Part shown: positions 2,119 through 51,819 of the stretch, in pieces
Layout: each line of letters begins with the position of its first letter
Numbering within the stretch: the first letter of the stretch is position 1
From: a bacterium
Lineage (GTDB): Bacteria; Muiribacteriota; UBA9980
Reading direction: 5' to 3'
Assembly (NCBI GenBank): GCA_029571125.1
Contig: JAKPTH010000501.1
Location: 1 to 55,615, forward strand
DNA length: 55,615 nt
The notes under the pieces: generated by a model
The model's input: the letters and a program-made list of their open reading frames with translations, nothing else
Told to the model about the DNA's origin: nothing
Database searches by the model: none
Translations under genes and position numbers: made by a program

Positions 2119-2147
2119 ATTATAACCGCTAAAATGAGTTTTGTCAA
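2119..2147 (-). promoter_or_regulatory. sigma70-type promoter for the C39-like peptidase gene
   Basis: Minus strand reads TTGACA (2147-2142), a 17-nt spacer, then TATAAT (2124-2119). Perfect consensus, ~38-nt leader with SD. Confidence 0.6.
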
Positions 2148-2158
2148 CGGCCGGGTAA

Positions 2159-4051
2159 TTAATTAAAAATAACGCCTTCACCGCAAAATTCGTTCATAAG
2201 CAATTCGAAGCGGTCATACTGCAGCCCGGATATTTTTGATTTGCCTTTAAGGGAGTCCAGAAGTATTTTTTTATTTTCTCCTTCAAAAGCCGCCATTTCA
2301 AAAATAAAAGACTGTGCGCCGACGCCGGTCATATGGCATTTAGGGCATCCGCGTCCGTGATAAATTTTGCATGCGCGTTTTACGGATTCGTCGAAATCCT
2401 CTTCGCGGCAGAAATTACATATAAAATCGACGTTTTTAGCGGCCATTACGGTAAGTTTCGACGAAAAAATATCTTTAGCCTGATTCAATGAAGCTACTTT
2501 ATTTAAAACCGATTCGACCGAAGGCTCCTGCATGGTTAATATAACCAGGGCGCCTGTAGCCAGGGATTTTTGAACATGTTCGAACGACGAAACGTCGTGC
2601 ATGACGCTTGTGGCTATTATATCCGCGCCAAGATTTATAGCGGTTTCGTGAAGCATTTTAAGGCTCGGCTCGTTCACCTGCGAATATTCAACCTGCGCGA
2701 TATCGTTAAGCGGGCAAATAAGATCTTTTTCAATTGACACTATTTTTTTATCGAGGTTCATTTTTGAAAGTTCGTTGAGCAAAGTATAATAAAGTTTGGT
2801 AAGCCCGAAAGAATCGGGCGAAGTTAAAATTAAAAGGCCTGATTTCTGAACGAGCGCATCGCGGAGTCTGGCGCAATAATTTTTCTGGTGTTTAAAATAG
2901 CTTTCGAGCGGCCTGGGAAAATTATTTAGCGAAAGGATTTTCAGCACCATATTTTCGCCGAAAAGCGCGGGCACGGTAAGCGCGTTGACGAAAAGCTTAA
3001 GGCTGGAAAGGTTCAATGCAAAATTCGAAACCTGGAATATACGATCTTCCTGGTAATCGAGCTTTCCCAGGTATTTAATCTTGGCGACTATATAATCGTA
3101 ATTTTCCGGTTTTATAGAATGAGTTAAATTAAAAAAGCGGCCGTTGATTTTAATAAAAATTTTAATATGGTCGCCGAAGGCTTCGAAGTGTATTTCGCTG
3201 GCATTAGCGCGTGCCGAATCGTATAAAATTTCAAACAGCGGCCTGACGAGCGAATTTTTATTATCGGCGATAATATCGAGCACTTCCTGAGGGAAGTTTG
3301 AAGGCCTTTTAAACGATTTTACGCTCTTAAACTCCTCGAGCTGTTCGTTCACTTCTATTTCGCTGAATTCGTCTATAGGGACGCTTCGGGCGTTTTTAGG
3401 GCATATATTTTCGAGCGCCTTTAATATGGCGCTGAAAGAAGTTATGACGAAACTTATTTTATAAGACGCGAAAAAAGACGAGTTCAAAATGTCGCCTATA
3501 TTAGACGGATCGCATATAGCGAATTCGATTTCTTTATTTTTAGGCGAGTATTTAGTAATAATCGTCAGAAAGGTCGTAAAAAAGGAAGGATCGACGCCTT
3601 CCGGAATAATTTTTGCGGCTTCGAGCTTAGCCGGCGCTATGTAAGTTAAGTCGAAAGCCTTCGCCAGCGCGTGGGCGAAATTCTGTTCGGAAAGTATGCC
3701 TGAAGTTATAAGATATTTGCCGAGCTTTCTGAGATTTCCTTTTTTAATAAGGAAAACGCGGGTAAGCTCGTCGAAGGAAATAAATTTTTCTTCGACTAGG
3801 ACGGTCGGAAGGTCTTTATTCTTCATCTGTGATAAAATGATCGAGTAAAGGTCGCGGCGAGACAGTATATTATTTTCAAGCAATATTGTTCCCAGGCGCT
3901 TTTTTTGTGATGCGCAGGCTTTCATATAATTTTGAAGTTCGGCATCGGTCAGGTATTTTTTTTCGACCAGAATTTTACCGACAGTTTCATCGAACGAAGG
4001 TTCAAAAAACTTCGCCTTTTGTTTTTTTTCGCTTGAAGCCGTATTCGGCAT
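2159..4051 (-). CDS. GspE/PilB-family secretion-ATPase homologue with degenerate catalytic motifs (predicted pseudo-ATPase)
   Basis: N-terminal T2SSE_N/MshEN-like helices (RLGTILLENNILSRRDLYSIILSQ; KLGKYLITSGILSEQNFAHALAKA). In the C-terminal ATPase fold, Walker A reads LTSPDSFGLT (canonical TGPTGSGKT), the Asp box reads SIEKDLI, Walker B reads GADIIATSVMHD, and the His box reads TGALVILTMQEP. The tetracysteine motif CNFC...CPKC is retained. SD AAGGAGA; 26 nt downstream of the preceding gene. Confidence 0.7.
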   Translation of the reverse strand: MPNTASSEKKQKAKFFEPSFDETVGKILVEKKYLTDAELQNYMKACASQKKRLGTILLENNILSRRDLYSIILSQMKNKDLPTVLVEEKFISFDELTRVFLIKKGNLRKLGKYLITSGILSEQNFAHALAKAFDLTYIAPAKLEAAKIIPEGVDPSFFTTFLTIITKYSPKNKEIEFAICDPSNIGDILNSSFFASYKISFVITSFSAILKALENICPKNARSVPIDEFSEIEVNEQLEEFKSVKSFKRPSNFPQEVLDIIADNKNSLVRPLFEILYDSARANASEIHFEAFGDHIKIFIKINGRFFNLTHSIKPENYDYIVAKIKYLGKLDYQEDRIFQVSNFALNLSSLKLFVNALTVPALFGENMVLKILSLNNFPRPLESYFKHQKNYCARLRDALVQKSGLLILTSPDSFGLTKLYYTLLNELSKMNLDKKIVSIEKDLICPLNDIAQVEYSQVNEPSLKMLHETAINLGADIIATSVMHDVSSFEHVQKSLATGALVILTMQEPSVESVLNKVASLNQAKDIFSSKLTVMAAKNVDFICNFCREEDFDESVKRACKIYHGRGCPKCHMTGVGAQSFIFEMAAFEGENKKILLDSLKGKSKISGLQYDRFELLMNEFCGEGVIFN

Positions 4052-4077
4052 AGTCCGTCTCCTTTACTTATAAGGAT

Positions 4078-4677
4078 TTATTTCCGTTTAAATTTTTTGC
4101 CGGTATTTTCGCCATTTTCTTCGGTATTGTTTAAATCCGGATTTACATCGGCCGACGATTTGATATCGCGGCGCGTAGATTTTAATATAGAATCCAGCCA
4201 GTCGCAAACTTTTATTTTTTTGCCTTTAGATATTTCAACCAGGTTATCGGCTCCGGTTTTAGGCGAATATGAAACCAGTTTTTCGCGGAATTCGTCCAAT
4301 TCTTTGATCTGGGCAAGTTTCATCGCCCAGCGAAGGCGGATTTGATTGGCGAAGTTATTTGCGCTCAATTTTTCCGAATCGACGTAAAAGGATAATTTTG
4401 AATTTTGAATATAACTAATAAGATCGTCTGGTTTTATAATTGAAGCCGCGGAAGGCGAGCCTATTGAATACGAGTTGAATTCGATCTTTTGAATGCTGGA
4501 TTTCGGGACTGATATGCGTCCGAAGCCGGCTTCGACTTCGAAGGTGCCGCCTTTCAATGATACTATGTCGCCGGTAATACGGTCGCCATTGATAAATATA
4601 ATTTCTTCGGCCGCGTGGGAAAAAGAAAAGCCGGCGCCAAGCGCCAGAATGACCAGAGCAGTTTTTAATATTTTCAT
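4078..4677 (-). CDS. secreted protein of unknown function, first gene of the operon with the PilB-like pseudo-ATPase
   Basis: Signal peptide MKILKTALVILALGAGFSFSHA; SD AGGTGA; promoter immediately upstream. No recognisable catalytic motif. Confidence 0.55.
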   Translation of the reverse strand: MKILKTALVILALGAGFSFSHAAEEIIFINGDRITGDIVSLKGGTFEVEAGFGRISVPKSSIQKIEFNSYSIGSPSAASIIKPDDLISYIQNSKLSFYVDSEKLSANNFANQIRLRWAMKLAQIKELDEFREKLVSYSPKTGADNLVEISKGKKIKVCDWLDSILKSTRRDIKSSADVNPDLNNTEENGENTGKKFKRK

Positions 4678-4695: not shown

Positions 4696-4725
4696 ATTAT
4701 AACACACCGGCTTAAAATAAGTCAA
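4696..4725 (-). promoter_or_regulatory. sigma70-type promoter for the 4677-2159 operon
   Basis: Minus strand reads TTGACT (4725-4720), an 18-nt spacer ending in TGT, then TATAAT (4701-4696). Confidence 0.5.
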
Positions 4726-4763
4726 GAGAATAGAGTACAGATAATAGAGAATAGAGTACAGAT
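4725..4763 (+). repeat. tandem direct repeat, 2 x 18 bp (AGAGAATAGAGTACAGAT) with 21-bp period, abutting the -35 box
   Basis: 4725-4742 and 4746-4763 are identical. A related copy, TAATAGAGAATAACATACA, lies at 8398-8416 upstream of the O-antigen-ligase-like gene. Confidence 0.6.
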
Positions 4764-4831
4764 GAGGACTTTTTTATTATTTAAGGTAAGTTTGTTATGT
4801 GGTTCGGCGCCTTTTAAAATGTCAAAAATCA

Positions 4832-4873: not shown

Positions 4874-4909
4874 AAAACCCCGACCGCATTAAATGTCAGC
4901 CGGGGTTTT
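4874..4909 (-). terminator. rho-independent terminator of the porin gene (usable in both directions)
   Basis: AAAACCCCG ... CGGGGTTTT stem flanked by A-run and T-run. A second hairpin, GGGTAGA-AGTATA-TCTACCC, lies at 4924-4943. Confidence 0.6.
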
Positions 4910-4975
4910 CTTTATATCGCGGGGGGTAGAAGTATATCTACCCTTATCCGCTTTAGTTTAGTGTTTTATGTTAAA

Positions 4976-6619
4976 TTAGAATTTAACATTGAGGTCTAAA
5001 CGAACCTGATCGTGGTCAGCAGGAGCACCAACGCCGAGAGCTGTGTAGTCAGCATCGTCGTCTTTGTATTTGGTTGTTCTGTAACGAAGTTTGAAAGCTG
5101 TGTTTTCTCTGTACTGGTAGGTACCGACTAACTGAACGGTGTTCTGATCGAAATTGCCAGAAGCGCCAACAGCGTTTTCCGTTTTAGCTTTTAAATCTTC
5201 ATACCAAACATCCATGTGTAATTTGTCGGTAGCCTTGTAGCCGAGGATTACGCCGGCGATTTTTGAATTATTGAATGAGTCAGCAACAGCTGCGCCAGCT
5301 TTTGACCATGTGTTGCCAGCAAGGCCGCAGTTAGCGTATACGTTGTTTCCGTAGTAAGCTGAATCGCTGTAGTCATCATTGATACCGAGAACTAAGAAGT
5401 CTTTCTGTCTTTCCTGATAGAGAGCTGTTAAGTCCCAACGGTTGTTGATTGTCCATTCAACGCCGAGTTTGAAAGCCTGGCCTTTCCAGTTGTTAGCAGC
5501 GTCGATATTGTTGATAACGTAGAGCGATTTGTCTTTTGCAGGTTTCTGTTCAAGGAATTCAGCGAAAGCAACAACGTGTTTGCCCATTTTGCCATCGAGG
5601 GTTAAACCGTACATATCGAGAGCCGAGTAAGCGTTGCCAGTACCGCTGATGCGGTCGTAAGCGCTGGATTTGGTGAAATAGTAAGCGCCGGCTGCAACTT
5701 GTTTCCAGGCGTGGTCAACTGTGAACAATTTGGCATCGAGGCCGTCATTGTTGCCACGAGCTGCGAAATTGTTACGAGTGTCGAGAGCTGCGAATGCGAA
5801 ATTAGTATTTTTGTGAGCTTTCTTTATTAAGAGACCGTCAACTTCGTTATCGAGAACGAGGCCTTTGCCTATTGTTAAGGTGAAACGGCCGGCTCTGAAG
5901 TTATCGATTAAGCGACCGCCGCCGAAATTTCTGACGTCGATGTAACCTAAGAAGAGGTCACGGTTCGTGTCAGCCGCGGTATCGTTGTTGAAACCAGTGT
6001 TAGGGTTGTTCTGGGTCGCGAAACCGTGAACTGTTGAGTCCTGTAACGATAAGAACGTAGAAACGTTATCGTCAACCTGACCTTTGATGTTCATGCGGAG
6101 TCTGTTTACGAATCTTGAATTACCAAGATCAGCAACGCCAGCGTTTAAGTCTTTGTATTTGTTGTCTTCGAAACGAACGCGGTCTTCGAGAGTAACTCTG
6201 AATTTGTTGAAGCCGTTCTTTTTGAGGGTGTCAACGTCTGTTTTCAGAGTGTCAACGTCGTTACGGATAACTTTTACTTCTTCTTCGAGAGCCTGAACTT
6301 TAACGCCGAGGAGCGCGAGTTCGTCTGCGAATTCGATTGTGAGTTTCTGTAAGGTTTCGAGGTCAGCGCCGCCGAATTTTTTGTCTATTAAACGAGCTAC
6401 TAAAAGAGCCATTTCGTATCTGGTCATAGCTTTTGCGCCTTTGAATTTGCCGTCAGCATAACCTTCGAGAAGGCCTTTTGCAGCGAGGCTGTTAACTGCT
6501 TCGTAAGCCCAATGTTTTTTCGGAACGTCCGAGAACGGACCTGCGAATGCAGCACCGATTGCTGTTGCCAAGAATACCACTACAACTACTAATAATAAAC
6601 CTTTTTTCATTATTTTCAA
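4976..6619 (-). CDS. SLH-domain outer-membrane porin (OmpM/Mep45-type OM-to-peptidoglycan tether)
   Basis: Signal peptide, then an SLH motif (FSDVPKKHWAYEAVNSLAAKGLLEGYADGKFKGAKAMTRYEMALLVARL). A coiled-coil follows (LEEEVKVIRNDVDTLKTDVDTLKK), then a long beta-rich region ending in ...RLDLNVKF with a terminal Phe typical of beta-barrel OMPs. SD AAGGGGGA. Confidence 0.75.
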   Translation of the reverse strand: MKIMKKGLLLVVVVVFLATAIGAAFAGPFSDVPKKHWAYEAVNSLAAKGLLEGYADGKFKGAKAMTRYEMALLVARLIDKKFGGADLETLQKLTIEFADELALLGVKVQALEEEVKVIRNDVDTLKTDVDTLKKNGFNKFRVTLEDRVRFEDNKYKDLNAGVADLGNSRFVNRLRMNIKGQVDDNVSTFLSLQDSTVHGFATQNNPNTGFNNDTAADTNRDLFLGYIDVRNFGGGRLIDNFRAGRFTLTIGKGLVLDNEVDGLLIKKAHKNTNFAFAALDTRNNFAARGNNDGLDAKLFTVDHAWKQVAAGAYYFTKSSAYDRISGTGNAYSALDMYGLTLDGKMGKHVVAFAEFLEQKPAKDKSLYVINNIDAANNWKGQAFKLGVEWTINNRWDLTALYQERQKDFLVLGINDDYSDSAYYGNNVYANCGLAGNTWSKAGAAVADSFNNSKIAGVILGYKATDKLHMDVWYEDLKAKTENAVGASGNFDQNTVQLVGTYQYRENTAFKLRYRTTKYKDDDADYTALGVGAPADHDQVRLDLNVKF

Positions 6620-6956
6620 ATCCCCCTTGTAAATTTTTGATTTTTTTTGGTTTAATCTGACCGAGATTAAATTAAACCTTTACTTCGTTCACCGAAGCTT
6701 CCGGGGGGCGCCTAAACTTTTTGCCTTTAAGTGTCCTTGTTACCTTTAACGCTACTTCGTTTAAACTTCCCGTCTACTTTTAGTTCACTTTTCAAGATTA
6801 GCCCACCCGCTTTCGCCGGCGAACCGTTTTTAACCCAACCGGTTTTTGCTAATAACAATACCGCACCCGTGCTATAGGATTTGTTTGTTTCACCTCCTCG
6901 TAATTCACGAACACGATATAATGTTGTCAATCAAAACCCGCAGTCAAATTAGTGCT

Positions 6957-7087: not shown

Positions 7088-8371
7088 TCAGTTTTTTCTT
7101 TCGCCCAGCGCCATGCCTGTATAAAACCATAAAATACGGCTTATTTCATTGTTAAACATATTGTATTCGCTTAGCCCCATCACCAGAACCGCAGCAAAAG
7201 CGAGTGCGGTTCCCGCGGCGAAAGCTTTTTCGACAGCGCCTTCTTCTTTAATGCTATTGATTTTTTTAATAAGCCGGCCGGCTAAAACGTAAAGGCAAAG
7301 GCATATAAACGAGGCGAAACCCGCGAACCCGGTTTCGGCGTATATTTGAAGGTATAGATTATGAAGATGGCCGTAAACCATTTTTTTGCGTTCTTCGGGA
7401 GCCCATTCGACCCTTCTGACGTAATCGGAATAATTCTTTTCGACGCCGCCTATTCCGACGCCGGTTACGGGGTTATCTTTTATCATGGCGATTCCGGCGG
7501 CATATATAACTTCCCTGCCGCTGGAGTATCCGCCGAGCGTGCTCATTACGCGCGCATTGAGATCGTTTAAAAGGGCAAAGTTTTTAACCGGCGGGTAAAT
7601 GACGACCGCGGCGGCTAAAGCGGAAACAATCAACGCCGCCGCAAAAATCCTGTAATACCGGTTAAAAAGCAGAAGGGCGAATACGGCCAGAACCATTGCG
7701 GCCCAGGGGCCGCGCGAGTATGTAAGCAGAAGGGCGGCGGCGTTTGCGCATATAAGAGCAAGGAACAAGCCGCGTTTTTGAGGGCTTTCAAATGCGTCTT
7801 TCGCGCCCAAAATTATCGCCAGGGATATACACTGCATCATAACCAGGAACTCGCCGTAAGTTATGGGCACTTCGAAAAGGCCGCTATATTTGCTTGGCCA
7901 GTAAACGAAATCCTGAAAATAAACGATATCGGTAAGGCCGAAAGCGGTTGCAAGAATGGCGGTCAAGAGTAAAATAAAGTTGACCGACTGAAGCAGGGCC
8001 ATCATTTTTATTTTATCTACGAGCATAAAACCTTTTTCATAGGCCAGAAAAAAAGCCAGAAAAGCCATGACGTTTTTGATTTTTCCTATTCCGGCCAGGC
8101 CCAGGCCGCTTGTAAAAAGCCCCAGGATGTTAGCGGCGACGAACAGTAACATTATGGAATAAACCGGGCTATATTTGAATTTCGCCGCCGCGCCGCCGGA
8201 GAATCTTGAATATAAAAGAGCGGCGATTGCCGAATAAAGAGCGAAGTTCGACAAAAAAGTAGAAAAAGAAACGGTAATCAGAAACATAACTATGAAAAAA
8301 TATATTACGCTATCCGTTTTACCGCTTTCGGAGGGAATTATCGGTTCCATACAATTCGCACATTTGACCAT
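7088..8371 (-). CDS. O-antigen ligase / polymerase family (Wzy_C-like) integral membrane protein
   Basis: About 10 hydrophobic segments, LTYSRGPWAAMVLAV motif, and a large loop with HLHNLYLQIYAETG. SD GAGGA. Confidence 0.65.
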   Translation of the reverse strand: MVKCANCMEPIIPSESGKTDSVIYFFIVMFLITVSFSTFLSNFALYSAIAALLYSRFSGGAAAKFKYSPVYSIMLLFVAANILGLFTSGLGLAGIGKIKNVMAFLAFFLAYEKGFMLVDKIKMMALLQSVNFILLLTAILATAFGLTDIVYFQDFVYWPSKYSGLFEVPITYGEFLVMMQCISLAIILGAKDAFESPQKRGLFLALICANAAALLLTYSRGPWAAMVLAVFALLLFNRYYRIFAAALIVSALAAAVVIYPPVKNFALLNDLNARVMSTLGGYSSGREVIYAAGIAMIKDNPVTGVGIGGVEKNYSDYVRRVEWAPEERKKMVYGHLHNLYLQIYAETGFAGFASFICLCLYVLAGRLIKKINSIKEEGAVEKAFAAGTALAFAAVLVMGLSEYNMFNNEISRILWFYTGMALGERKN

Positions 8372-45126: not shown

Positions 45127-45960
45127 TCACATTTTGCTTCTTAAATAAACGAGTTGATCGAAATAATTGACGTTTTTATTATTGTCGCTGATGATAAAGC
45201 GGAACCATACACCTATGGCCCTGCTGATATCGGTAAACCCCACTTCGGAGCCGTTGTATTTGCCTTTATAAGTAGCTTTAGCGATCATTTCGTCTTTTTT
45301 ATCGAGCGTAACCGCGTCGTCGAGCATTACGTTCATGTAATAATTGTTATCTATAACGAAAAATTTGCTTTCTCTTTTAACCACGCCGACACCTACGACT
45401 GGAAATTCGCTTTCTTTTAAAACGCCTATGGTATTGGCGGTTAAATTGTCCGCAAAACTCTTTAAAAGTATTCTATCTTCGGCGCCGCCGCCGGCCTTCG
45501 CGCCCGGCCCGGGATCCGCGTCGGCCTGGCTTCTGGCAAGGGTCAGGGCCTTAATTTGCTTTCCGTTGACGTTCTGATCGGTAAAATAAAAGCTGTATGT
45601 GATATAATCGTAATCTATCGTATCGCTCGTAAGCGGATCGGCGCCCGCTTTAACTTCTTTGACATGCTTGAGCGTCATGGTAACCGCGTCTGCCGTTTCT
45701 TCGAAATTAGTTACCGCCGAGGAGCTTCTGACGTCGAACTCGAAACGCTGAAGCGCAAGCCGCGCCTCCCTGAGGTTATCGCCTTTCTGAAATAAATTTT
45801 CGGCCTGGCGGCGGCTGTGAAATACGAATTCATTGAAAACCAGGAACAGAAGCGAAAAAATCGCCACGCCTACCATAATTTCGACTATGGTAAAAGCTTT
45901 GCGGCCCGAATTTGCGGCGGCGGAATATTTTTTATCCGCGTTTTTATATAAATAATTCAT
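45127..45960 (-). CDS. pseudopilin / type IV pilin-like protein with prepilin N-terminal motif
   Basis: GRKA-FTIVEIMVGVAIFSLLFLV: Glu at +5 and a hydrophobic helix. The -1 residue is Ala rather than Gly, and the leader is 22 aa. Confidence 0.65.
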   Translation of the reverse strand: MNYLYKNADKKYSAAANSGRKAFTIVEIMVGVAIFSLLFLVFNEFVFHSRRQAENLFQKGDNLREARLALQRFEFDVRSSSAVTNFEETADAVTMTLKHVKEVKAGADPLTSDTIDYDYITYSFYFTDQNVNGKQIKALTLARSQADADPGPGAKAGGGAEDRILLKSFADNLTANTIGVLKESEFPVVGVGVVKRESKFFVIDNNYYMNVMLDDAVTLDKKDEMIAKATYKGKYNGSEVGFTDISRAIGVWFRFIISDNNKNVNYFDQLVYLRSKM

Positions 45961-46020
45961 ATTCTACCTCTAAATATATAAATACCAGCCGGATGCTTCA
46001 AGCCCGGCGTTCGACGGAAT

Positions 46021-46635
46021 TTAAGGTTTGGTTACTATAGTGAAAACTTTAAATTCATATTCTTTGTCGGGTTTATCGGGCTCGACCCACTTGACGGTCA
46101 CGTTGATCTGTATCCGCGACATCATTTTTTCGTACTCCGGCCTTTCCTTGGGATTAGCCACCGGCGGCGGAGGCGAAGCGCTGTCGAATACCATTTCGGG
46201 AAATTTCATCTTTGGAAAGCTTTTTACGGGGTAAAACGCCACCGCTATATCTATTTTATGTTTTGGGTATCCCGGAATCATTCCATAGTCTATGGTTTTT
46301 GTATATTCGTTCCAGTTGGTGCCGATCCCGCCGGGGCTAGCCTCGATAATCAGCCACTGCAAGGAATCATAGCCGCTGTAAACGGTTTTCGGAAACGGCG
46401 GAACTTCCACCATGGAAGAGCCGTGCTTTAGCTGCTCGCTCATAGAAAGCGCCAGCGAAGAGGCTTTTATAGCGCTCAAGCTCTTGACGTTGGCTTTGGT
46501 GGAATACATTAAAATATTTATAAACGGAACTACCGCAATAACGAATATCGCAAACGATATTATTATTTCGGTCAGCGAAAGCCCTCTATTTCGTATGGAA
46601 AATCCGTTTTTCGTAAATTCGTTCGACATCAGCAT
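46021..46635 (-). CDS. pseudopilin / type IV pilin-like protein
   Basis: RNRG-LSLTEIIISFAIFVIAVVPF (canonical Gly -1, Glu +5); SD GAGG. Confidence 0.7.
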   Translation of the reverse strand: MLMSNEFTKNGFSIRNRGLSLTEIIISFAIFVIAVVPFINILMYSTKANVKSLSAIKASSLALSMSEQLKHGSSMVEVPPFPKTVYSGYDSLQWLIIEASPGGIGTNWNEYTKTIDYGMIPGYPKHKIDIAVAFYPVKSFPKMKFPEMVFDSASPPPPVANPKERPEYEKMMSRIQINVTVKWVEPDKPDKEYEFKVFTIVTKP

Positions 46636-46675
46636 AAAAACGCCTCGTTATATAATAAATTTCGTCAAAACTTAA

Positions 46676-47284
46676 TTAATTCGCCGCGGCCAGCTTATTT
46701 TGCAGTTCCAGCTTCACCTTCATGATTTCGCTTTTCGTGCCGGGGTCGTTATCCAGGCCTTCGCATGTTTCTACATATCTTAAAAGCGCCTTGATGAAAG
46801 TTTTTTCATTTCCGCCGATCATACCCAGCATTGCCAGTTTCTGATAAATCTTAAGTTTCATTATTTGATTATCGGGTTCCGCCTTGAGGGCCGCCAGTAA
46901 AGAATCTGCCGCGCGGTCGAAATTGCCGGAAATCATGAACTTCTCAGCCAGAATATACATTTTGCTGGCTTTGCCGGAAGTGGCGCGGACATATTTATTG
47001 TTCATTTCGACGTATTGCTGTGCGCTCTTGCGGCTTTCTTCAGAAGCCTTTCTGGCGGCCACGAACAACTGGTCATACTCCGACGAAGGGTCGAATGACT
47101 GCACGTTGAAAGCGCCGCGCGAAGCGCTTTTACGCACCTGCTCCAGCTCCTCTTCGAGCTTGAGTTTTTTAGAATACTGAGTAGCCTTGGTGGAGGTGCT
47201 TTTTAAAATAAACCTCACGCCGGGTATCACTATGGTAAATATAAATATGACCACGCATAAAGCTATGATAGCCTTGCTTTTCAT
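46676..47284 (-). CDS. membrane-anchored coiled-coil/TPR-like protein in the pseudopilin operon
   Basis: N-terminal TM segment AIIALCVVIFIFTIVIPGV and a TPR-like GNFDRAADSLLAALKAEPDNQ. Confidence 0.5.
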   Translation of the reverse strand: MKSKAIIALCVVIFIFTIVIPGVRFILKSTSTKATQYSKKLKLEEELEQVRKSASRGAFNVQSFDPSSEYDQLFVAARKASEESRKSAQQYVEMNNKYVRATSGKASKMYILAEKFMISGNFDRAADSLLAALKAEPDNQIMKLKIYQKLAMLGMIGGNEKTFIKALLRYVETCEGLDNDPGTKSEIMKVKLELQNKLAAAN

Positions 47285-47337
47285 TTTACCCTTCTTTTAA
47301 AACAATATAAATTGCCGGCCTGTTACGAAAAAATCTT

Positions 47338-49707
47338 CTATTCCCTTTGCTGGATGTAATTATCGGACCTGCTCACGTTATAATTGATGGTGCAGTATTT
47401 TTTGTCGAAATTCTCCTTGTTTTTATCGATCCATTTCTGGAACGGATTGATGATGAGCTTATCAGGATAGTAGTTCTTTTTGTCTTCGTCTTCCCAGTTT
47501 ATTTCCTGGCATGTGAGGTTTCCGAAAATCCCTATGAAGCTGTCGTCGGTGCCGCTAAAAAGCTTGAAGCCGGCCTTTCTACTCTTCATATCTATCATCA
47601 TGCCCTTTTTGCCGTAAAGATACGCGTCGATCCTGACGTACGGTTTGGCCGAAAAATAACTCTGGAAACCGCTGAATAAGCCGCTGTAATATTTCTGGTC
47701 GTACGGATGCGGCGAAAAAATTATCTTTCCGCTTACGCCGAAATCGCTCGCCGCGGCGTCTTTTGTGCCGAGAGCTATAAGCTGGAGGCAGTTGTTGGCG
47801 CCCCTTAAAATATCGTACTGCCTTTCGCTGCCTGGATCGAAAACGCCGTCGTCCGGGTGGCGCAGTATCTGGCCGCCTATAATTATGTTTCCGGTAGCCA
47901 CGATAGCCCCGCGGCCTTTGTAGTAGCCTTCTATCAGCACGTCGCCGTCAACGAAATAAACGCCGTCTATATTTATGGCATATTTAGAGTGCTGCGTGGC
48001 CGCCTCGAATATATTTTTGGACGTGGAAAAATTATACCACGGAAGCTCTTTCACGCACTGGTCGGAGGAGTCGGCCCAGCCCCAGAAAGGCCGCCATACT
48101 ACTTTTTTATATTCCTTTTCGGTCGTAAAAAAAGCCACGTCGCCCGTGAATTTTTTATTTTCAAAAAATTTTTCGTTTGTCGCCGCGTCGAACAATCGCG
48201 GTATTTTCTCGCCTTTCACCGATGCGTCTTTTGTAAAATCTACGGTTTCGGCTATTATATTATGCCTCGCCGCTATTTTTTTGTATGTGTTTTCATCGTA
48301 TAAATACGCGAGCTGGCCGTTATTTCCTATAATATCGCCAGGAACGACGTTGGAGGTAAATTCTGAAAAATCGTAAGGCTCGTCCTGCGGATCAACCCCC
48401 GAAAAGCTCGAAAACCAGCCCTGCTTCATAACCCCGTATCTTCTTTTAACGTCGCCGTAAATCCAGTTATGAACGGTGCTCGAGTTATTGGGTATGCCGA
48501 ACAGGTTGTTGAAACCGCTGGTGACGAAATTAAAAGCCTGAGCGCTCCAGCCTATGGGCGGAAAATGCCCGGTTAAATCGACGTTGCCGCGGCTGCCGCC
48601 GGTGGAAGCTATGATACCGCCAAGCGCTTCGCCCACGGCGGCTCCGAATCCGGTAGGAAAATCCACTTCGCAAAGGCGCCAGTTGCTTTTATTAATGGCT
48701 TCATAAACCGCTCCGAGAATGTTTTCTGAAGTGGCGTTAGCGCCGAGAGGAATGTGCGCTATCCCCGTATGCTGAACGTATTTAAACATCGGCGAATCCG
48801 TATGCTCGAAAAGTTTTTCATCCACTTCTTTGGAATGCATTTTTATGATCATGCTAAGCTGGCCCAGTGAATCCATCATGCTTTTAAAAACGGGGTTCAT
48901 GATCCCTGAGAGGTTCGAAAAATCGCTCCTGGTTTCGTTAAGTTCGACGACGAGCTTGCGGCCGAATATTATGGCTTTGGTTTTGTTATAAGGCGGCAGC
49001 CATTCCACGCCGTTATTAATTACCAGATATTGCGGAACGTACTTAGACGACCAGGTGGGAGTGATAGTGGCGTCGCCGTCCCATCTTCTGGCCTTTATAA
49101 CCTGCTCGTTGTTATCTTCGTTTACCGCGAAAGCGTATCTGGCCATAACCGAAAGATCGCGGTACAATTCGACCTGTTTCTGGACCGTCACGGCCCGTTT
49201 TGCTCCGCGATACTCGCCCTGGCATGTTATGCTCATTATACCGAGCGCGAGGTTGTCGTCCACTTTTTTCTGAAGGTCGAATTTGACTTTTATATGATTT
49301 ATTTTAGCTTCGGGTATCGAAGCTTGTATGCTCGTTTCTATATTGGCCGTCTTGAGTTCGCCCGAAGCAACCCATGAATCGTTAGGATTGTCTTCGGGAA
49401 TGGGATAATCTGCGAAACTGGCGAATGCGCCGAATTTTTTATTGATATCCATGGTCGAATCAGACGAAAGCGGCTGTATGTAATCTGAATATTTGTGGTC
49501 TTTTATAACGTAAAGCGCGTGCTCCACTCCGGTTTCCGCCACGAAATGCGCCACGCTCGCGTCGAGATAATTAAACGACGACGACGATTCCTGCCGCATC
49601 ATCATTATAACTGTATAGCCCAGAAGGAACAAAACCGCCACCATAAAAAGAACGTATGCGAGAGCGAAACCCTTAGCCGGTTTTGATTTTTTTATATATG
49701 CGAGCAT
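47338..49707 (-). CDS. large (789 aa) PilX_N/GspK-like minor pseudopilin, probable tip/adhesin subunit
   Basis: KPAKG-FALAYVLFMVAVLFLLGYTV (PilX/GspK-type N-terminus lacking Glu +5), followed by ~740 aa with no recognised motif. Confidence 0.5.
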   Translation of the reverse strand: MLAYIKKSKPAKGFALAYVLFMVAVLFLLGYTVIMMMRQESSSSFNYLDASVAHFVAETGVEHALYVIKDHKYSDYIQPLSSDSTMDINKKFGAFASFADYPIPEDNPNDSWVASGELKTANIETSIQASIPEAKINHIKVKFDLQKKVDDNLALGIMSITCQGEYRGAKRAVTVQKQVELYRDLSVMARYAFAVNEDNNEQVIKARRWDGDATITPTWSSKYVPQYLVINNGVEWLPPYNKTKAIIFGRKLVVELNETRSDFSNLSGIMNPVFKSMMDSLGQLSMIIKMHSKEVDEKLFEHTDSPMFKYVQHTGIAHIPLGANATSENILGAVYEAINKSNWRLCEVDFPTGFGAAVGEALGGIIASTGGSRGNVDLTGHFPPIGWSAQAFNFVTSGFNNLFGIPNNSSTVHNWIYGDVKRRYGVMKQGWFSSFSGVDPQDEPYDFSEFTSNVVPGDIIGNNGQLAYLYDENTYKKIAARHNIIAETVDFTKDASVKGEKIPRLFDAATNEKFFENKKFTGDVAFFTTEKEYKKVVWRPFWGWADSSDQCVKELPWYNFSTSKNIFEAATQHSKYAINIDGVYFVDGDVLIEGYYKGRGAIVATGNIIIGGQILRHPDDGVFDPGSERQYDILRGANNCLQLIALGTKDAAASDFGVSGKIIFSPHPYDQKYYSGLFSGFQSYFSAKPYVRIDAYLYGKKGMMIDMKSRKAGFKLFSGTDDSFIGIFGNLTCQEINWEDEDKKNYYPDKLIINPFQKWIDKNKENFDKKYCTINYNVSRSDNYIQQRE

Positions 49708-49873
49708 AAATCACCTCTTCGTTCGTGGATAAAACTATTATATCATATATTAATTTTAACAAATAGGCCGGCATAAGTCAAGGGCGCGCGCTTAAAAATA
49801 CGGCCAATTAATTTATCAGAAGGGCATTTCGAACATTTTATTTTTTTCGAATATTACAAATTTTAAATATAGT

Positions 49874-49904
49874 AAAACAGGCCGTCCATTGGCCGGCCTG
49901 TTTT
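49874..49904 (-). terminator. rho-independent terminator (bidirectional architecture)
   Basis: AAAACAGGCCG-TCCATTGGC-CGGCCTGTTTT; 11-bp stem with A/T runs on both sides. Confidence 0.7.
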
Positions 49905-49944
49905 AGCGTGTAAATTGTACCTTGATTTTTTTTGAACCGCTTAT

Positions 49945-51819
49945 TTAAAATTTAAGCTGCGTCTCTATATTTATAGAATCCACCGCTTTTCCGGATTCGT
50001 TTAATATGTGCCTGAGCTCATAGCACATGCTCGATGAATCGGAAATGTCGAAACGCGCCTTCAGGCCATAAATTGCATCGCTGACTCTCGAATTTGAATA
50101 ATATAAATTCTTGCGGTCGTAATTCGCCGAAAGCTTCAGTTTATTATAATCGAGGCCGGTGTAATCGATTCCGAGCGAAAGGTGCGGCCTCAAGAAGGGC
50201 GAGTAATCTTTTTCATAAGACACCCTGAACGTATAAGCGTCGTTGAATTTAGCCTTGAATTCATTGAACCAGCCCGAATAACGCTCGCCGTTGTCGCGCA
50301 TTCTCATAAGGGAGCGGCCTTTGTAATGGCGTTCCATCTCATAGAGGGTATCGAAATAATTAGGAATGTAATTCGAACCCATCACGCGGAATTCCGTTTT
50401 AAAAGTGAAGTCGGCCATTTCAGCCAGCACGCCCGTGTGCATGCCTGTTCCGAAATTCCTTATTTTAGCGATTTCCTCATAAATTTTAAATTTAGAGTTG
50501 TATCTGGACGAAAGAGGTATGCCGACGTGCAAGGAGCCGACCGTTACGTTTTCGTTATGAAAACCGGTATTTACTTTATTGTCTGAAACTATCTGAGCGC
50601 CGACCTGCACGTGGTCGTGAGGCATTATTTCAAATGACGCGGCATAAATTCCGGGCGAGGCGATGTCGTCGACAAAAAGTTTTATATAATCTTCATAGCC
50701 GGTATCGTAAGTCGCGACTGCCCCTAGTTTTTTATCCAGAAGAGGATAGCGGAGGCTGCCGCAGTAATTTCTAAAAATAGCCCCCGAGCCGAGAGTGAGA
50801 TCGTCTATCATTTCCACGCGGGCCGAAAGGCCTTCGCCCGGCTTGCCGTAATATATATAATAAATTTTACGGATAAAATCGTCGGCGCTGTCCCAGTCGG
50901 TCTTTCTAAGGTTATTATTTTCGTCGAAATAAAAAGTCAGATCATACGCGAAGCTGAGATCGTTATATGAAAAACGCGGAATAGCGCCTATTTTAGACCA
51001 CATTTTGCGCGCGCCGGTATCGGGGTTCTCGAGCACGTTCGCGCCGAGATTTAAATACAGGCCCGGAAACCATTTGAGGCGGGTTTCGCTGTTGCCGAGA
51101 TATTTGGAAAAGAAGCCGCTCGCTTTTTCCCCGGCGGATTTATTTTCAGCCTTGCCCGATGGATCGGCTTCGGATTTTGTCCTGGAATTTCTGGCGAGGC
51201 TTATATCGCCGTCCGAATAACGAGGCGGTCTTACGGTTGAAGACGAAGTTTTGCGTTTGGAAGAATTATTATTAGAAGCGGCTTTTGCTTCCGCTTTAAA
51301 ATAACTTTCATCGCCGTCCGAGCTTATAACCACGTTTGAAGATAAAGCCGGAGTTTTTGAAACCGCGGCGGAAGATTTTTTCTTATTCGCATTCGCGGCG
51401 GATTTTTGCGAAAGCTCGTTGTATCTGGATTCGTAATAATTGTTAGAACTTAACGCCATGGCTTTAAGGGGCGCCGGTTTGACTTCGGCGGCGTTATTTT
51501 TCAAGGATTGCGCCGGGGAGGCGACGGATGTTTCAACACTTGCCGCGGGGGCTTTTGCCGCCGCCTGCTTCGCGCTTTTTTTAGAGACGGGTTTCGCCTT
51601 CTCTTTAACGGCCGCGCCTGCGGACGGTTTAGGCTGCGCCTTTTTAGCCGCCGGCCTGGCCGCATTCGCCGCGTTTTTAGAAGAATATCCTTTTTTCTTT
51701 TTGCCCAGAGGCGCGGCCCCCGCGTCGGATGCGGCAAGAAGAGCCGCGCCTATAAAGGCTATAAGCGCCGATATGGTTAAAAACTTTAAAAAGTTTTTAT
51801 TATCAGTGGTTTTTATCAT
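49945..51819 (-). CDS. secreted protein with K/A/S-rich low-complexity N-terminal third and a predicted C-terminal beta-barrel (OMP of unknown family)
   Basis: Signal peptide FLTISALIAFIGAALLAASDAGA, ~190 aa rich in K/A/S, then a beta-rich region ending ...NIETQLKF (terminal Phe). SD ACGGAG. Confidence 0.5.
   Translation of the reverse strand: MIKTTDNKNFLKFLTISALIAFIGAALLAASDAGAAPLGKKKKGYSSKNAANAARPAAKKAQPKPSAGAAVKEKAKPVSKKSAKQAAAKAPAASVETSVASPAQSLKNNAAEVKPAPLKAMALSSNNYYESRYNELSQKSAANANKKKSSAAVSKTPALSSNVVISSDGDESYFKAEAKAASNNNSSKRKTSSSTVRPPRYSDGDISLARNSRTKSEADPSGKAENKSAGEKASGFFSKYLGNSETRLKWFPGLYLNLGANVLENPDTGARKMWSKIGAIPRFSYNDLSFAYDLTFYFDENNNLRKTDWDSADDFIRKIYYIYYGKPGEGLSARVEMIDDLTLGSGAIFRNYCGSLRYPLLDKKLGAVATYDTGYEDYIKLFVDDIASPGIYAASFEIMPHDHVQVGAQIVSDNKVNTGFHNENVTVGSLHVGIPLSSRYNSKFKIYEEIAKIRNFGTGMHTGVLAEMADFTFKTEFRVMGSNYIPNYFDTLYEMERHYKGRSLMRMRDNGERYSGWFNEFKAKFNDAYTFRVSYEKDYSPFLRPHLSLGIDYTGLDYNKLKLSANYDRKNLYYSNSRVSDAIYGLKARFDISDSSSMCYELRHILNESGKAVDSINIETQLKF

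Follow-up and report, generated by a model that had tools for sequence, protein, structure and literature searches.

The gene considered here occupies positions 2159..4051, on the minus strand, of a 55,615-nucleotide stretch of bacterial DNA (contig JAKPTH010000501.1 of assembly GCA_029571125.1, phylum Muiribacteriota), which is referred to as the window throughout. It is an ATG-started open reading frame (ORF) for a protein of 630 amino acids with the fold of PilB and GspE, the motors of type IV filaments, and public databases call it either 'ATPase, T2SS/T4P/T4SS family' or 'type II secretion system protein E'. Judged from the alignments described below, it is a functional but non-catalytic derivative of PilB/GspE, constrained in its N-terminal tandem bundle, its N2D domain and its zinc site, and we call it the pseudo-ATPase. 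Because the residues that split ATP have been lost and yet the protein is strongly conserved and accompanied by a constant neighbour of the exported type, its most probable role is that of a regulator or adaptor without enzymatic activity, not that of a motor.

The positions of the catalytic motifs were set by a residue-wise phmmer alignment to PilB and by aligning the protein with 20 active GspE/PilB homologues in MAFFT, and the coordinates were checked by translation. A sequence-only reading of this DNA had claimed that all catalytic motifs of the protein are replaced; the strings it quoted were all present at their places in the translation of 2159-4051, and they lie exactly opposite GPTGSGKT, (T)xEDPxE, DPDIIMxGEIRD and TGHLVxSTLHTN. 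The Walker A equivalent (residues 410-418; 2798..2824, minus strand, as are all features of the gene given below) is TSPDSFGLT, that is LTSPDSFGLT against the canonical VTGPTGSGKT, in which GxxGxGK[ST] is absent and the Lys is lost. The Asp-box equivalent (residues 439-445; 2717..2737) reads SIEKDLI instead of the canonical TxEDPxE, the Walker B equivalent (residues 475-486; 2594..2629) is GADIIATSVMHD opposite DPDIIMxGEIRD and has lost the catalytic Glu, and the His-box equivalent (residues 499-510; 2522..2557) is TGALVILTMQEP opposite the canonical TGHLVLSTLHTN (TGHLVxSTLHTN) and has lost both His. In addition to the motifs of the earlier list, the arginine finger of N2D is also gone: EDRIFQVSNF (residues 335-344; 3020-3049) stands in the MAFFT alignment where ExRxPQDGR is canonical, with RxPQDGR lost. 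The tetracysteine zinc motif, which had been described as intact, is so indeed, since CNFC (residues 545-548) and CPKC (residues 569-572), at 2336..2419, supply C545, C548, C569 and C572, and all four are invariant in the 32 aligned sequences of the family and its active homologues. None of the canonical catalytic motifs was found in any of the 12 family sequences. The P-loop equivalent varies within the family from SPDSFGLT to GIDEMKQL (canonical in 0/12) and has kept its original length without insertions or deletions; a Lys or Arg stands two residues past the lost Walker Lys in most members, and Q or S does so in three. By these alignments the ATP site is destroyed in every orthologue of the pseudo-ATPase.

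The relationship to PilB and GspE is clear in both sequence and predicted structure. Pfam T2SSE (PF00437), a model that the earlier reading had proposed as a check, matches residues 264-598 with an E value of 1.4e-29 and 103 bits against a cut-off of 24.9. The closest solved relatives in phmmer are Geobacter PilB (6olj/5tsg, E 1e-27), Vibrio EpsE/GspE and Thermus PilF. An AlphaFold2 model (pLDDT 80.5) was matched by Foldseek to PilB 5tsh with a TMt of 0.77 and to the cores of PilB, EpsE and PilF with TM values of 0.73-0.79. The order of domains is the same as in the known motors (Geobacter PilB 5tsh/6olj; Vibrio EpsE 1p9r and GspE 4pht), namely N1D/GSPII, N2D and a RecA-like C-terminal domain (CTD) with the zinc subdomain; the fold is shared as well (TMt 0.73-0.79), at an identity of only about 17-22%. 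The protein stays well below the cut-offs of both NCBIfam equivalogs, PilB TIGR02538 (143 bits against 676) and GspE TIGR02533 (104 bits against 630). Behind the N-terminal bundles, residues 133-215 (3407..3655) appear to form a divergent alpha/beta region similar to the GSPII C-subdomain: they align to PilB N1D, and the predicted secondary structure, with strands at 163-169, 174-179 and 198-203 and flanking helices, is compatible with this assignment. The full GSPII domain T2SSE_N (PF05157) gave no match in the pseudo-ATPase at E values up to 1, and it is present in all of its active homologues. The N2D-like domain covers residues 263-380 (2912..3265) in the alignments to PilB and in MAFFT. 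Weak matches to Pfam DUF4388 and to a treble clef in the same scan were under their cut-offs and were not used. Unlike PilB and GspE, the pseudo-ATPase has all its motifs for nucleotide binding and hydrolysis and its arginine finger replaced, and it is an orphan, with no genes for a platform, pilin or secretin nearby, which is paired instead with an exported DUF5329-like protein.

From a search space of 5.8 billion proteins, 11 orthologues were recovered at 95% to 45% identity, followed by a gap down to ordinary GspE/PilB proteins at about 22%; one of the orthologues is labelled as coming from a Candidatus Wallbacteria metagenome-assembled genome. The reading frame is unbroken in all of them, even at 45% identity. 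At the level of genomes, the pseudo-ATPase is single-copy in 9/9 species representatives of one Wallbacteria-like GTDB family of sludge bacteria, which comprises three genera, and a whole-genome search of the phylum found it in none of the remaining 78 genomes. The ratio of nonsynonymous to synonymous substitution rates (dN/dS, Nei-Gojobori) is 0.06-0.09 for the whole gene, 0.02-0.05 for residues 23-132, 0.03-0.06 for N2D and 0.13-0.20 for the CTD, which is the former catalytic core. Purifying selection acts on the gene and is tightest on the N-terminal tandem module and N2D and loosest on the former catalytic core. About 10 studies, with about 20 independent runs of sludge or bioreactor samples between them, contain near-identical DNA. 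Metatranscriptomes yielded shallow contigs over parts of the gene, and the gene is transcribed at a low level, although contig depth is a poor measure of it.

The search for relatives covered 1.84 billion representatives, of which the best 150 matches were inspected. The best matches from outside the family (P0037, P0039, P0049 and P0058) are ATPases with intact GPTGSGKT and other motifs, and the closest active relatives keep GPTGSGKT, EDP, DPDKIMVGEIRD and TGHLV. Among them, the active ATPases of 616-630 amino acids (P0037, P0039, P0049, and one encoded on contig C648 of the same genome) carry a tandem N-terminal module like that of the pseudo-ATPase and are its best-scoring active relatives. 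P0037 aligns without gaps to residues 20-139, with 37 of 120 positions identical (31%) and with the same alternation of degenerate and good motifs. Because an active ATPase has this same four-motif pattern, the tandem module was probably inherited and is older than the loss of catalysis, and was not gained by the pseudo-enzyme afterwards. What separates the pseudo-ATPase from the P0037-type proteins is its lack of catalytic motifs and the stem of 3.2 substitutions per site on which its family stands. A quick maximum-likelihood tree groups P0037, P0039 and P0049 with the C648 ATPase and shows the pseudo-ATPase family as monophyletic (support 100); because the stem is so long, the sister group of the family is not resolvable, and the link to the P0037/C648 subfamily is one of score rank in the hidden Markov model (HMM) search and of the N-terminal alignment only. 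The C648 ATPase is the nearest active relative within the genome and lies in a GspF-GspE-PilMNO-like cluster; the order on C648:312-10885 is an RNase II/R-like gene, a GspF-like platform, the active tandem-bundle ATPase, three PilM/N/O-like genes and a Cas3-like helicase. A search of the genome for intact paralogues, also suggested by the sequence-only reading, found at least six PilB/GspE-type proteins with Walker A, His box and the four Cys, and the genome holds about 10 platform genes and five secretins. At least four further proteins among the 150 best matches (P0054, P0122, P0169 and P0177, and in part P0168) are of PilB/GspE length and were without Walker A, Asp box, Walker B and His box in a pattern search; they represent unrelated, dead-looking PilB-like lineages.

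The N-terminal region had been likened earlier to MshEN, the N-terminal domain of Vibrio cholerae MshE (5htl), which is a high-affinity receptor of cyclic di-GMP (c-di-GMP) (PMC5013675). When the pseudo-ATPase was scanned for the 24-residue MshEN motif by its hydrophobic skeleton, exactly four copies came up, starting at residues 23, 52, 80 and 109. They make up two 53-residue units (residues 23-75 and 80-132), each with a 5-residue spacer and separated by a 4-residue linker, and the AlphaFold2 model predicts eight helices across them. Unit 1 (3827..3985; skeleton scan and NCBIfam NF053729) consists of the degenerate motif TVGKILVEKKYLTDAELQNYMKAC, the spacer ASQKK and the near-canonical motif RLGTILLENNILSRRDLYSIILSQ (residues 52-75), with the key residues TVG..K..C and RLG..N..Q, respectively. 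Unit 2 (3656..3814; alignment to MshE and NF053729) consists of the degenerate motif DLPTVLVEEKFISFDELTRVFLIK, the spacer KGNLR and the near-canonical motif KLGKYLITSGILSEQNFAHALAKA (residues 109-132), with the key residues DLP..K..K and KLG..G..A, and is nearly invariant across the family. Residues 79-140 are matched by residues 8-69 of MshE 5htl, and residues 41-141 by PilF. The likeness to MshEN thus stood as far as the four skeletons and the duplicated 24+5+24 architecture are concerned; it did not hold at the level of the motif, since the first motif of each unit is degenerate and none of the four fits either pattern of Wang et al. (2016), be it the strict one, RLGxx(L/V/I)(L/V/I)xxG(L/V/I)(L/V/I)xxxxLxxxLxxQ, or the relaxed one used for searches. 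Their matches at the 11 key positions number 5, 9, 6 and 8, against 9-11 in bona fide domains of the same genome. With NF053729, an MshE-related model with a cut-off of 38 bits, the whole protein scores 64.4 bits and 11/11 family members match, and the single units score 38.1 bits (unit 1) and 33.9 bits (unit 2) against 57-76 bits for five bona fide MshEN domains elsewhere in the genome. In comparison with MshE, the pseudo-ATPase shares the 24+5+24 plan of the four-helix bundle and has one near-canonical motif per unit, and it differs in the tandem duplication, in the degenerate first motifs, in a Pro at the Gly position of unit 2 and in these borderline scores.

Published mutagenesis of MshE provides a yardstick for ligand binding. 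Replacement of the Gly at position 3 of either motif (G11L, G40I) abolishes c-di-GMP binding and that of any conserved hydrophobic residue causes a more than 10-fold loss, whereas binding drops less than 5-fold when Arg9 or Gln32 is lost. The window protein keeps both Gly in its unit 1 (G25 and G54), where all six hydrophobic contact positions are hydrophobic as well; in other genera of the family G25 becomes A or S, and at the motif I contact positions M43 becomes K, R or I. Measured in this way, unit 1 of the window protein is borderline-compatible with c-di-GMP binding. Unit 2 has G111 in its second motif and P82, invariant in the family, in its first, and because this Pro occupies an essential Gly position, unit 2 is unlikely to bind the ligand. 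The genome has about 14 GGDEF matches, and the organism thus has c-di-GMP signalling; on the sequence evidence as a whole, binding by the pseudo-ATPase is conceivable but doubtful. A different use of the module is suggested by its invariant residues, which are mostly non-motif surface positions (E59, N60, N61, S64, R65, R66, D67, K77 and K79, and further E88, K89, S92, E95, T97, R98, K103, K104 and R108) and would be no less at home in a protein-protein interface than in a nucleotide pocket. Thermus thermophilus PilF has several GSPII modules in a row, and its GSPII-A pairs a good motif with a degenerate one; this domain was shown not to bind c-di-GMP, and a return to the consensus did not by itself restore binding (PMC11731258, PMC12002112). 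GSPII-A offers a precedent for a half-degenerate MshEN-like domain whose role would be structural or in docking and not in binding the ligand. The N-domain of Xanthomonas campestris XpsE is likewise cited as a degenerate MshEN (PMC12943098). The domains of PilF and XpsE sit on active ATPases, whereas the pseudo-ATPase has two bare 53-residue bundles with a 4-residue linker, a single C-subdomain and a dead ATPase. The case cautions that MshEN-like strings alone are poor ground for claiming c-di-GMP binding.

The constant neighbour is a gene for a 199-residue protein of the exported type (4078..4677, minus strand), which lies upstream of the pseudo-ATPase gene in 9/9 genomes of the family and in every metagenome locus, normally adjoining it. 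In some loci of one genus, g1, a 77-residue DUF2283 gene lies between the two, as seen at 7675-7908 of locus L013 and, by spacing, in genome G084. The partner has a Sec-type signal peptide, a small beta-barrel (residues 23-67), a DUF5329-like alpha/beta domain (residues 83-169) and a basic disordered tail, and its AlphaFold2 model has a pLDDT of 65. Pfam DUF5329 (PF17263) gives 26.3 bits against a cut-off of 27, and 4/5 orthologues match it at E values up to 0.1. No strong homologue was found elsewhere in the phylum, and a profile search of a large protein collection returned 20 proteins, all of the same clade. The spacer of 26 nucleotides between the two genes (4052..4077) contains an AAGGAG ribosome-binding site, and a 406-nucleotide metatranscriptome contig (3725-4130) spans the junction. 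Upstream of the partner, behind the terminator hairpin of a porin gene, lies a predicted sigma-70-type promoter, TTGACT-18-TATAAT with an extended -10 TG (4696..4725; 11/12 match), which is conserved in L013. Partner and pseudo-ATPase therefore form a bicistron with its own predicted promoter, and the earlier statement that the gene is co-transcribed with a small exported protein is borne out by the short gap, the ribosome-binding site, the shared promoter and the RNA contig across the junction. Two tandem 18-mers similar to TCTGTACTCTATTCTCT, with a 21-bp period, abut the -35 box (4726-4765); they are a candidate operator, although not a genus-wide one, as L013 keeps the -35 and -10 boxes and only a single partial copy. 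The small-barrel fold is common. For the five-stranded N-terminal barrel of the partner (residues 23-67), Foldseek gave weak matches among Hfq/Sm proteins, with an E value of about 4e-3, 43 columns and an rmsd of 1.0 A, and an Sm/Hfq-like identity was not built on, given weak matches over a 45-residue barrel and the low pLDDT of the model (65). The barrel also weakly resembles the NCBIfam N-terminal domain of Leptospira LA_0442/LA_0875 (26.7 bits against a cut-off of 43).

As to what such a protein might do, we lean towards a lineage-specific, catalytically dead paralogue of PilB/GspE type IV-filament motors which is kept as a binding protein, that is, as an ATP-independent 'motor mimic' or adaptor. 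In real motors, it is the N-terminal module, N2D and the zinc subdomain that are turned towards adjacent subunits or the platform in the inner membrane. As these are the parts that have been kept, the pseudo-ATPase would dock onto a platform, or would form mixed assemblies with one of the at least six active paralogues or compete with it, and would act without ATP on a type IV-filament machine of the cell. Such docking, mixing or competition would modulate a pilus or secretion machine, possibly under the control of a nucleotide ligand bound in unit 1, and the exported partner, made in a fixed ratio with the pseudo-ATPase, might be a periplasmic component or the cargo of the same process. A regulatory output of a PilB-type protein apart from powering pilus assembly has a precedent in Myxococcus xanthus PilB, which acts in signalling for exopolysaccharide regulation (PMC5544727); that protein is an active motor with the signal in its nucleotide state, and the CTD of the pseudo-ATPase keeps no nucleotide site. 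Several observations weigh against a mimic or adaptor. No gene of type IV pili or type II secretion stands beside the two-gene module in any lineage; the partner is predicted to be exported and hence topologically apart from the cytoplasmic pseudo-ATPase, and for this reason a direct cytoplasmic complex of the two is disfavoured. The stem of the family is too long to place it in the PilB/GspE tree, and in genus g2 the C648-type ATPase gave only CTD-level matches at threshold, full-length orthologues being not clearly found. The support from expression is thin as well, with an RNA contig depth of about 3-9, which is a poor measure and may include DNA carry-over.

Of the competing explanations, a dedicated c-di-GMP receptor, in which the MshEN-like module binds the ligand and the dead ATPase body relays the signal, is compatible with a mimic or adaptor and is best regarded as a tentative possibility. 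It draws on the NF053729 score of the whole protein and the agreement of all members, on the architecture present twice, on unit 1 with its two Gly and its six hydrophobic contacts, in which the loss of Arg and Gln would be mild by the example of MshE, and on the GGDEF proteins of the genome. It is opposed by the failure of every motif to match the published pattern, strict or relaxed, by the low scores of the single units, by the variation of the motif I contacts within the family, by the invariant Pro of unit 2, by the non-binding PilF GSPII-A and by the conservation of mainly non-motif surface positions. The sequence-only reading had proposed a non-catalytic regulator or scaffold that possibly binds a second messenger; of this, the derivation from a secretion/pilus ATPase and the lack of catalysis stood, and the gene is retained by selection; the evidence for c-di-GMP binding is mixed, and the four-motif pattern is shared with an active ATPase.

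Another explanation separates the module from type IV filaments and assigns it an envelope role with its exported partner, for instance in outer-membrane/porin biology, or as a cytoplasmic factor that chaperones or targets the DUF5329-like protein. We think this unlikely. The strict adjacency and co-distribution of the two genes agree with it, as do an OmpM-type SLH porin just upstream of the module in 3/4 lineages and Wzy_C and glycosyltransferase genes nearby in genus g1, but the porin linkage is broken in L018 and interrupted in L015, where an insertion between porin and partner (L015:5325-7351) carries an AAA_14 gene and a ParD/ParE toxin-antitoxin pair. Moreover, the porin gene ends in a terminator of its own and the module starts from its own promoter, the best-conserved regions are those common to real motors, and the literature searches made gave no precedent. 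It is highly improbable that the protein is still an NTPase with a non-canonical active site: the P-loop of intact length and the Lys/Arg two residues past the Walker Lys would be its remnants, but this residue is replaced in three members, nothing is left of the glycine-rich loop, the two acids of the Asp box, the Walker B Glu, the two His or the arginine finger, and the former catalytic core is the fastest-evolving region. A decaying pseudogene or an assembly artefact, for which the loss of motifs and nothing further speaks, is already refuted by the conservation data, namely by the intact frame down to 45% identity, a dN/dS below 0.1 and the presence of the gene in all genomes of the family, and it is also contradicted by near-identical DNA from independent studies and by RNA contigs that cover the gene. 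Going further than the mimic or adaptor that we prefer, one may speculate, with little expectation of being right, that the two-gene module is an undescribed, lineage-specific control of type IV filaments, in which the mimic would take the site of a motor or poison its hexamer, the half-site bundles would bind a guanine nucleotide besides or other than c-di-GMP, and the co-translated partner would be the periplasmic arm or cargo; taken with the other dead PilB-like representatives among the matches, pseudo-motors would then be a general unrecognised class of regulators.

Full-text searches of a partial literature library found no description of catalytically dead PilB/GspE paralogues. Because databases name the pseudo-ATPase an ATPase, genome-based counts of secretion and pilus motors are too high in these genomes. 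What is distinctive of the pseudo-ATPase appears to be the combination of an inherited, half-degenerate tandem module with an obligatory exported partner. The family is also a natural experiment in which the catalytic core drifts and the N-terminal tandem bundle, N2D and zinc site stay fixed, a pattern that points to those surfaces of PilB-type motors which serve docking and not catalysis.

Some observations on the surrounding genes complete the picture of the window. The statement that it contains no active PilB/PilT, PilC or secretin was confirmed, as no other T2SSE, T2SSF or secretin genes were found on the contig. A pseudopilin operon had been reported at 45127-49707; this was upheld in part, since within 45127-51819 (minus strand) the N-terminal methylation motif occurs in the 277-residue ORF at 45127-45960 (E 1.6e-4) and is not shown by the others, and the ORFs of 204, 202, 789 and 624 residues upstream of it had no Pfam match at all. 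Downstream of the pseudo-ATPase, the 75-nucleotide gap between its stop and a C39-like peptidase gene (1013-2083) contains a perfect 12/12 sigma-70 promoter, TTGACA-17-TATAAT (2119-2147, minus strand). The peptidase has a signal peptide and an Asn/Ser-rich low-complexity linker; because of its own perfect promoter it is a separate transcription unit, and as it is moreover linked only in genus g1, it was rejected as a member of the module. Co-transcription of the SLH porin with the module was likewise rejected because of the terminator and promoter in between. This OmpM-type porin gene (4899-6940, minus strand) is covered by single RNA contigs of about 2 kb, at a depth of 112-202 and about 96% identity, in two activated-sludge runs, and these contigs end at the terminator hairpin (near 4900) on one side and, on the other, with a long 5' leader that extends to about 6940.

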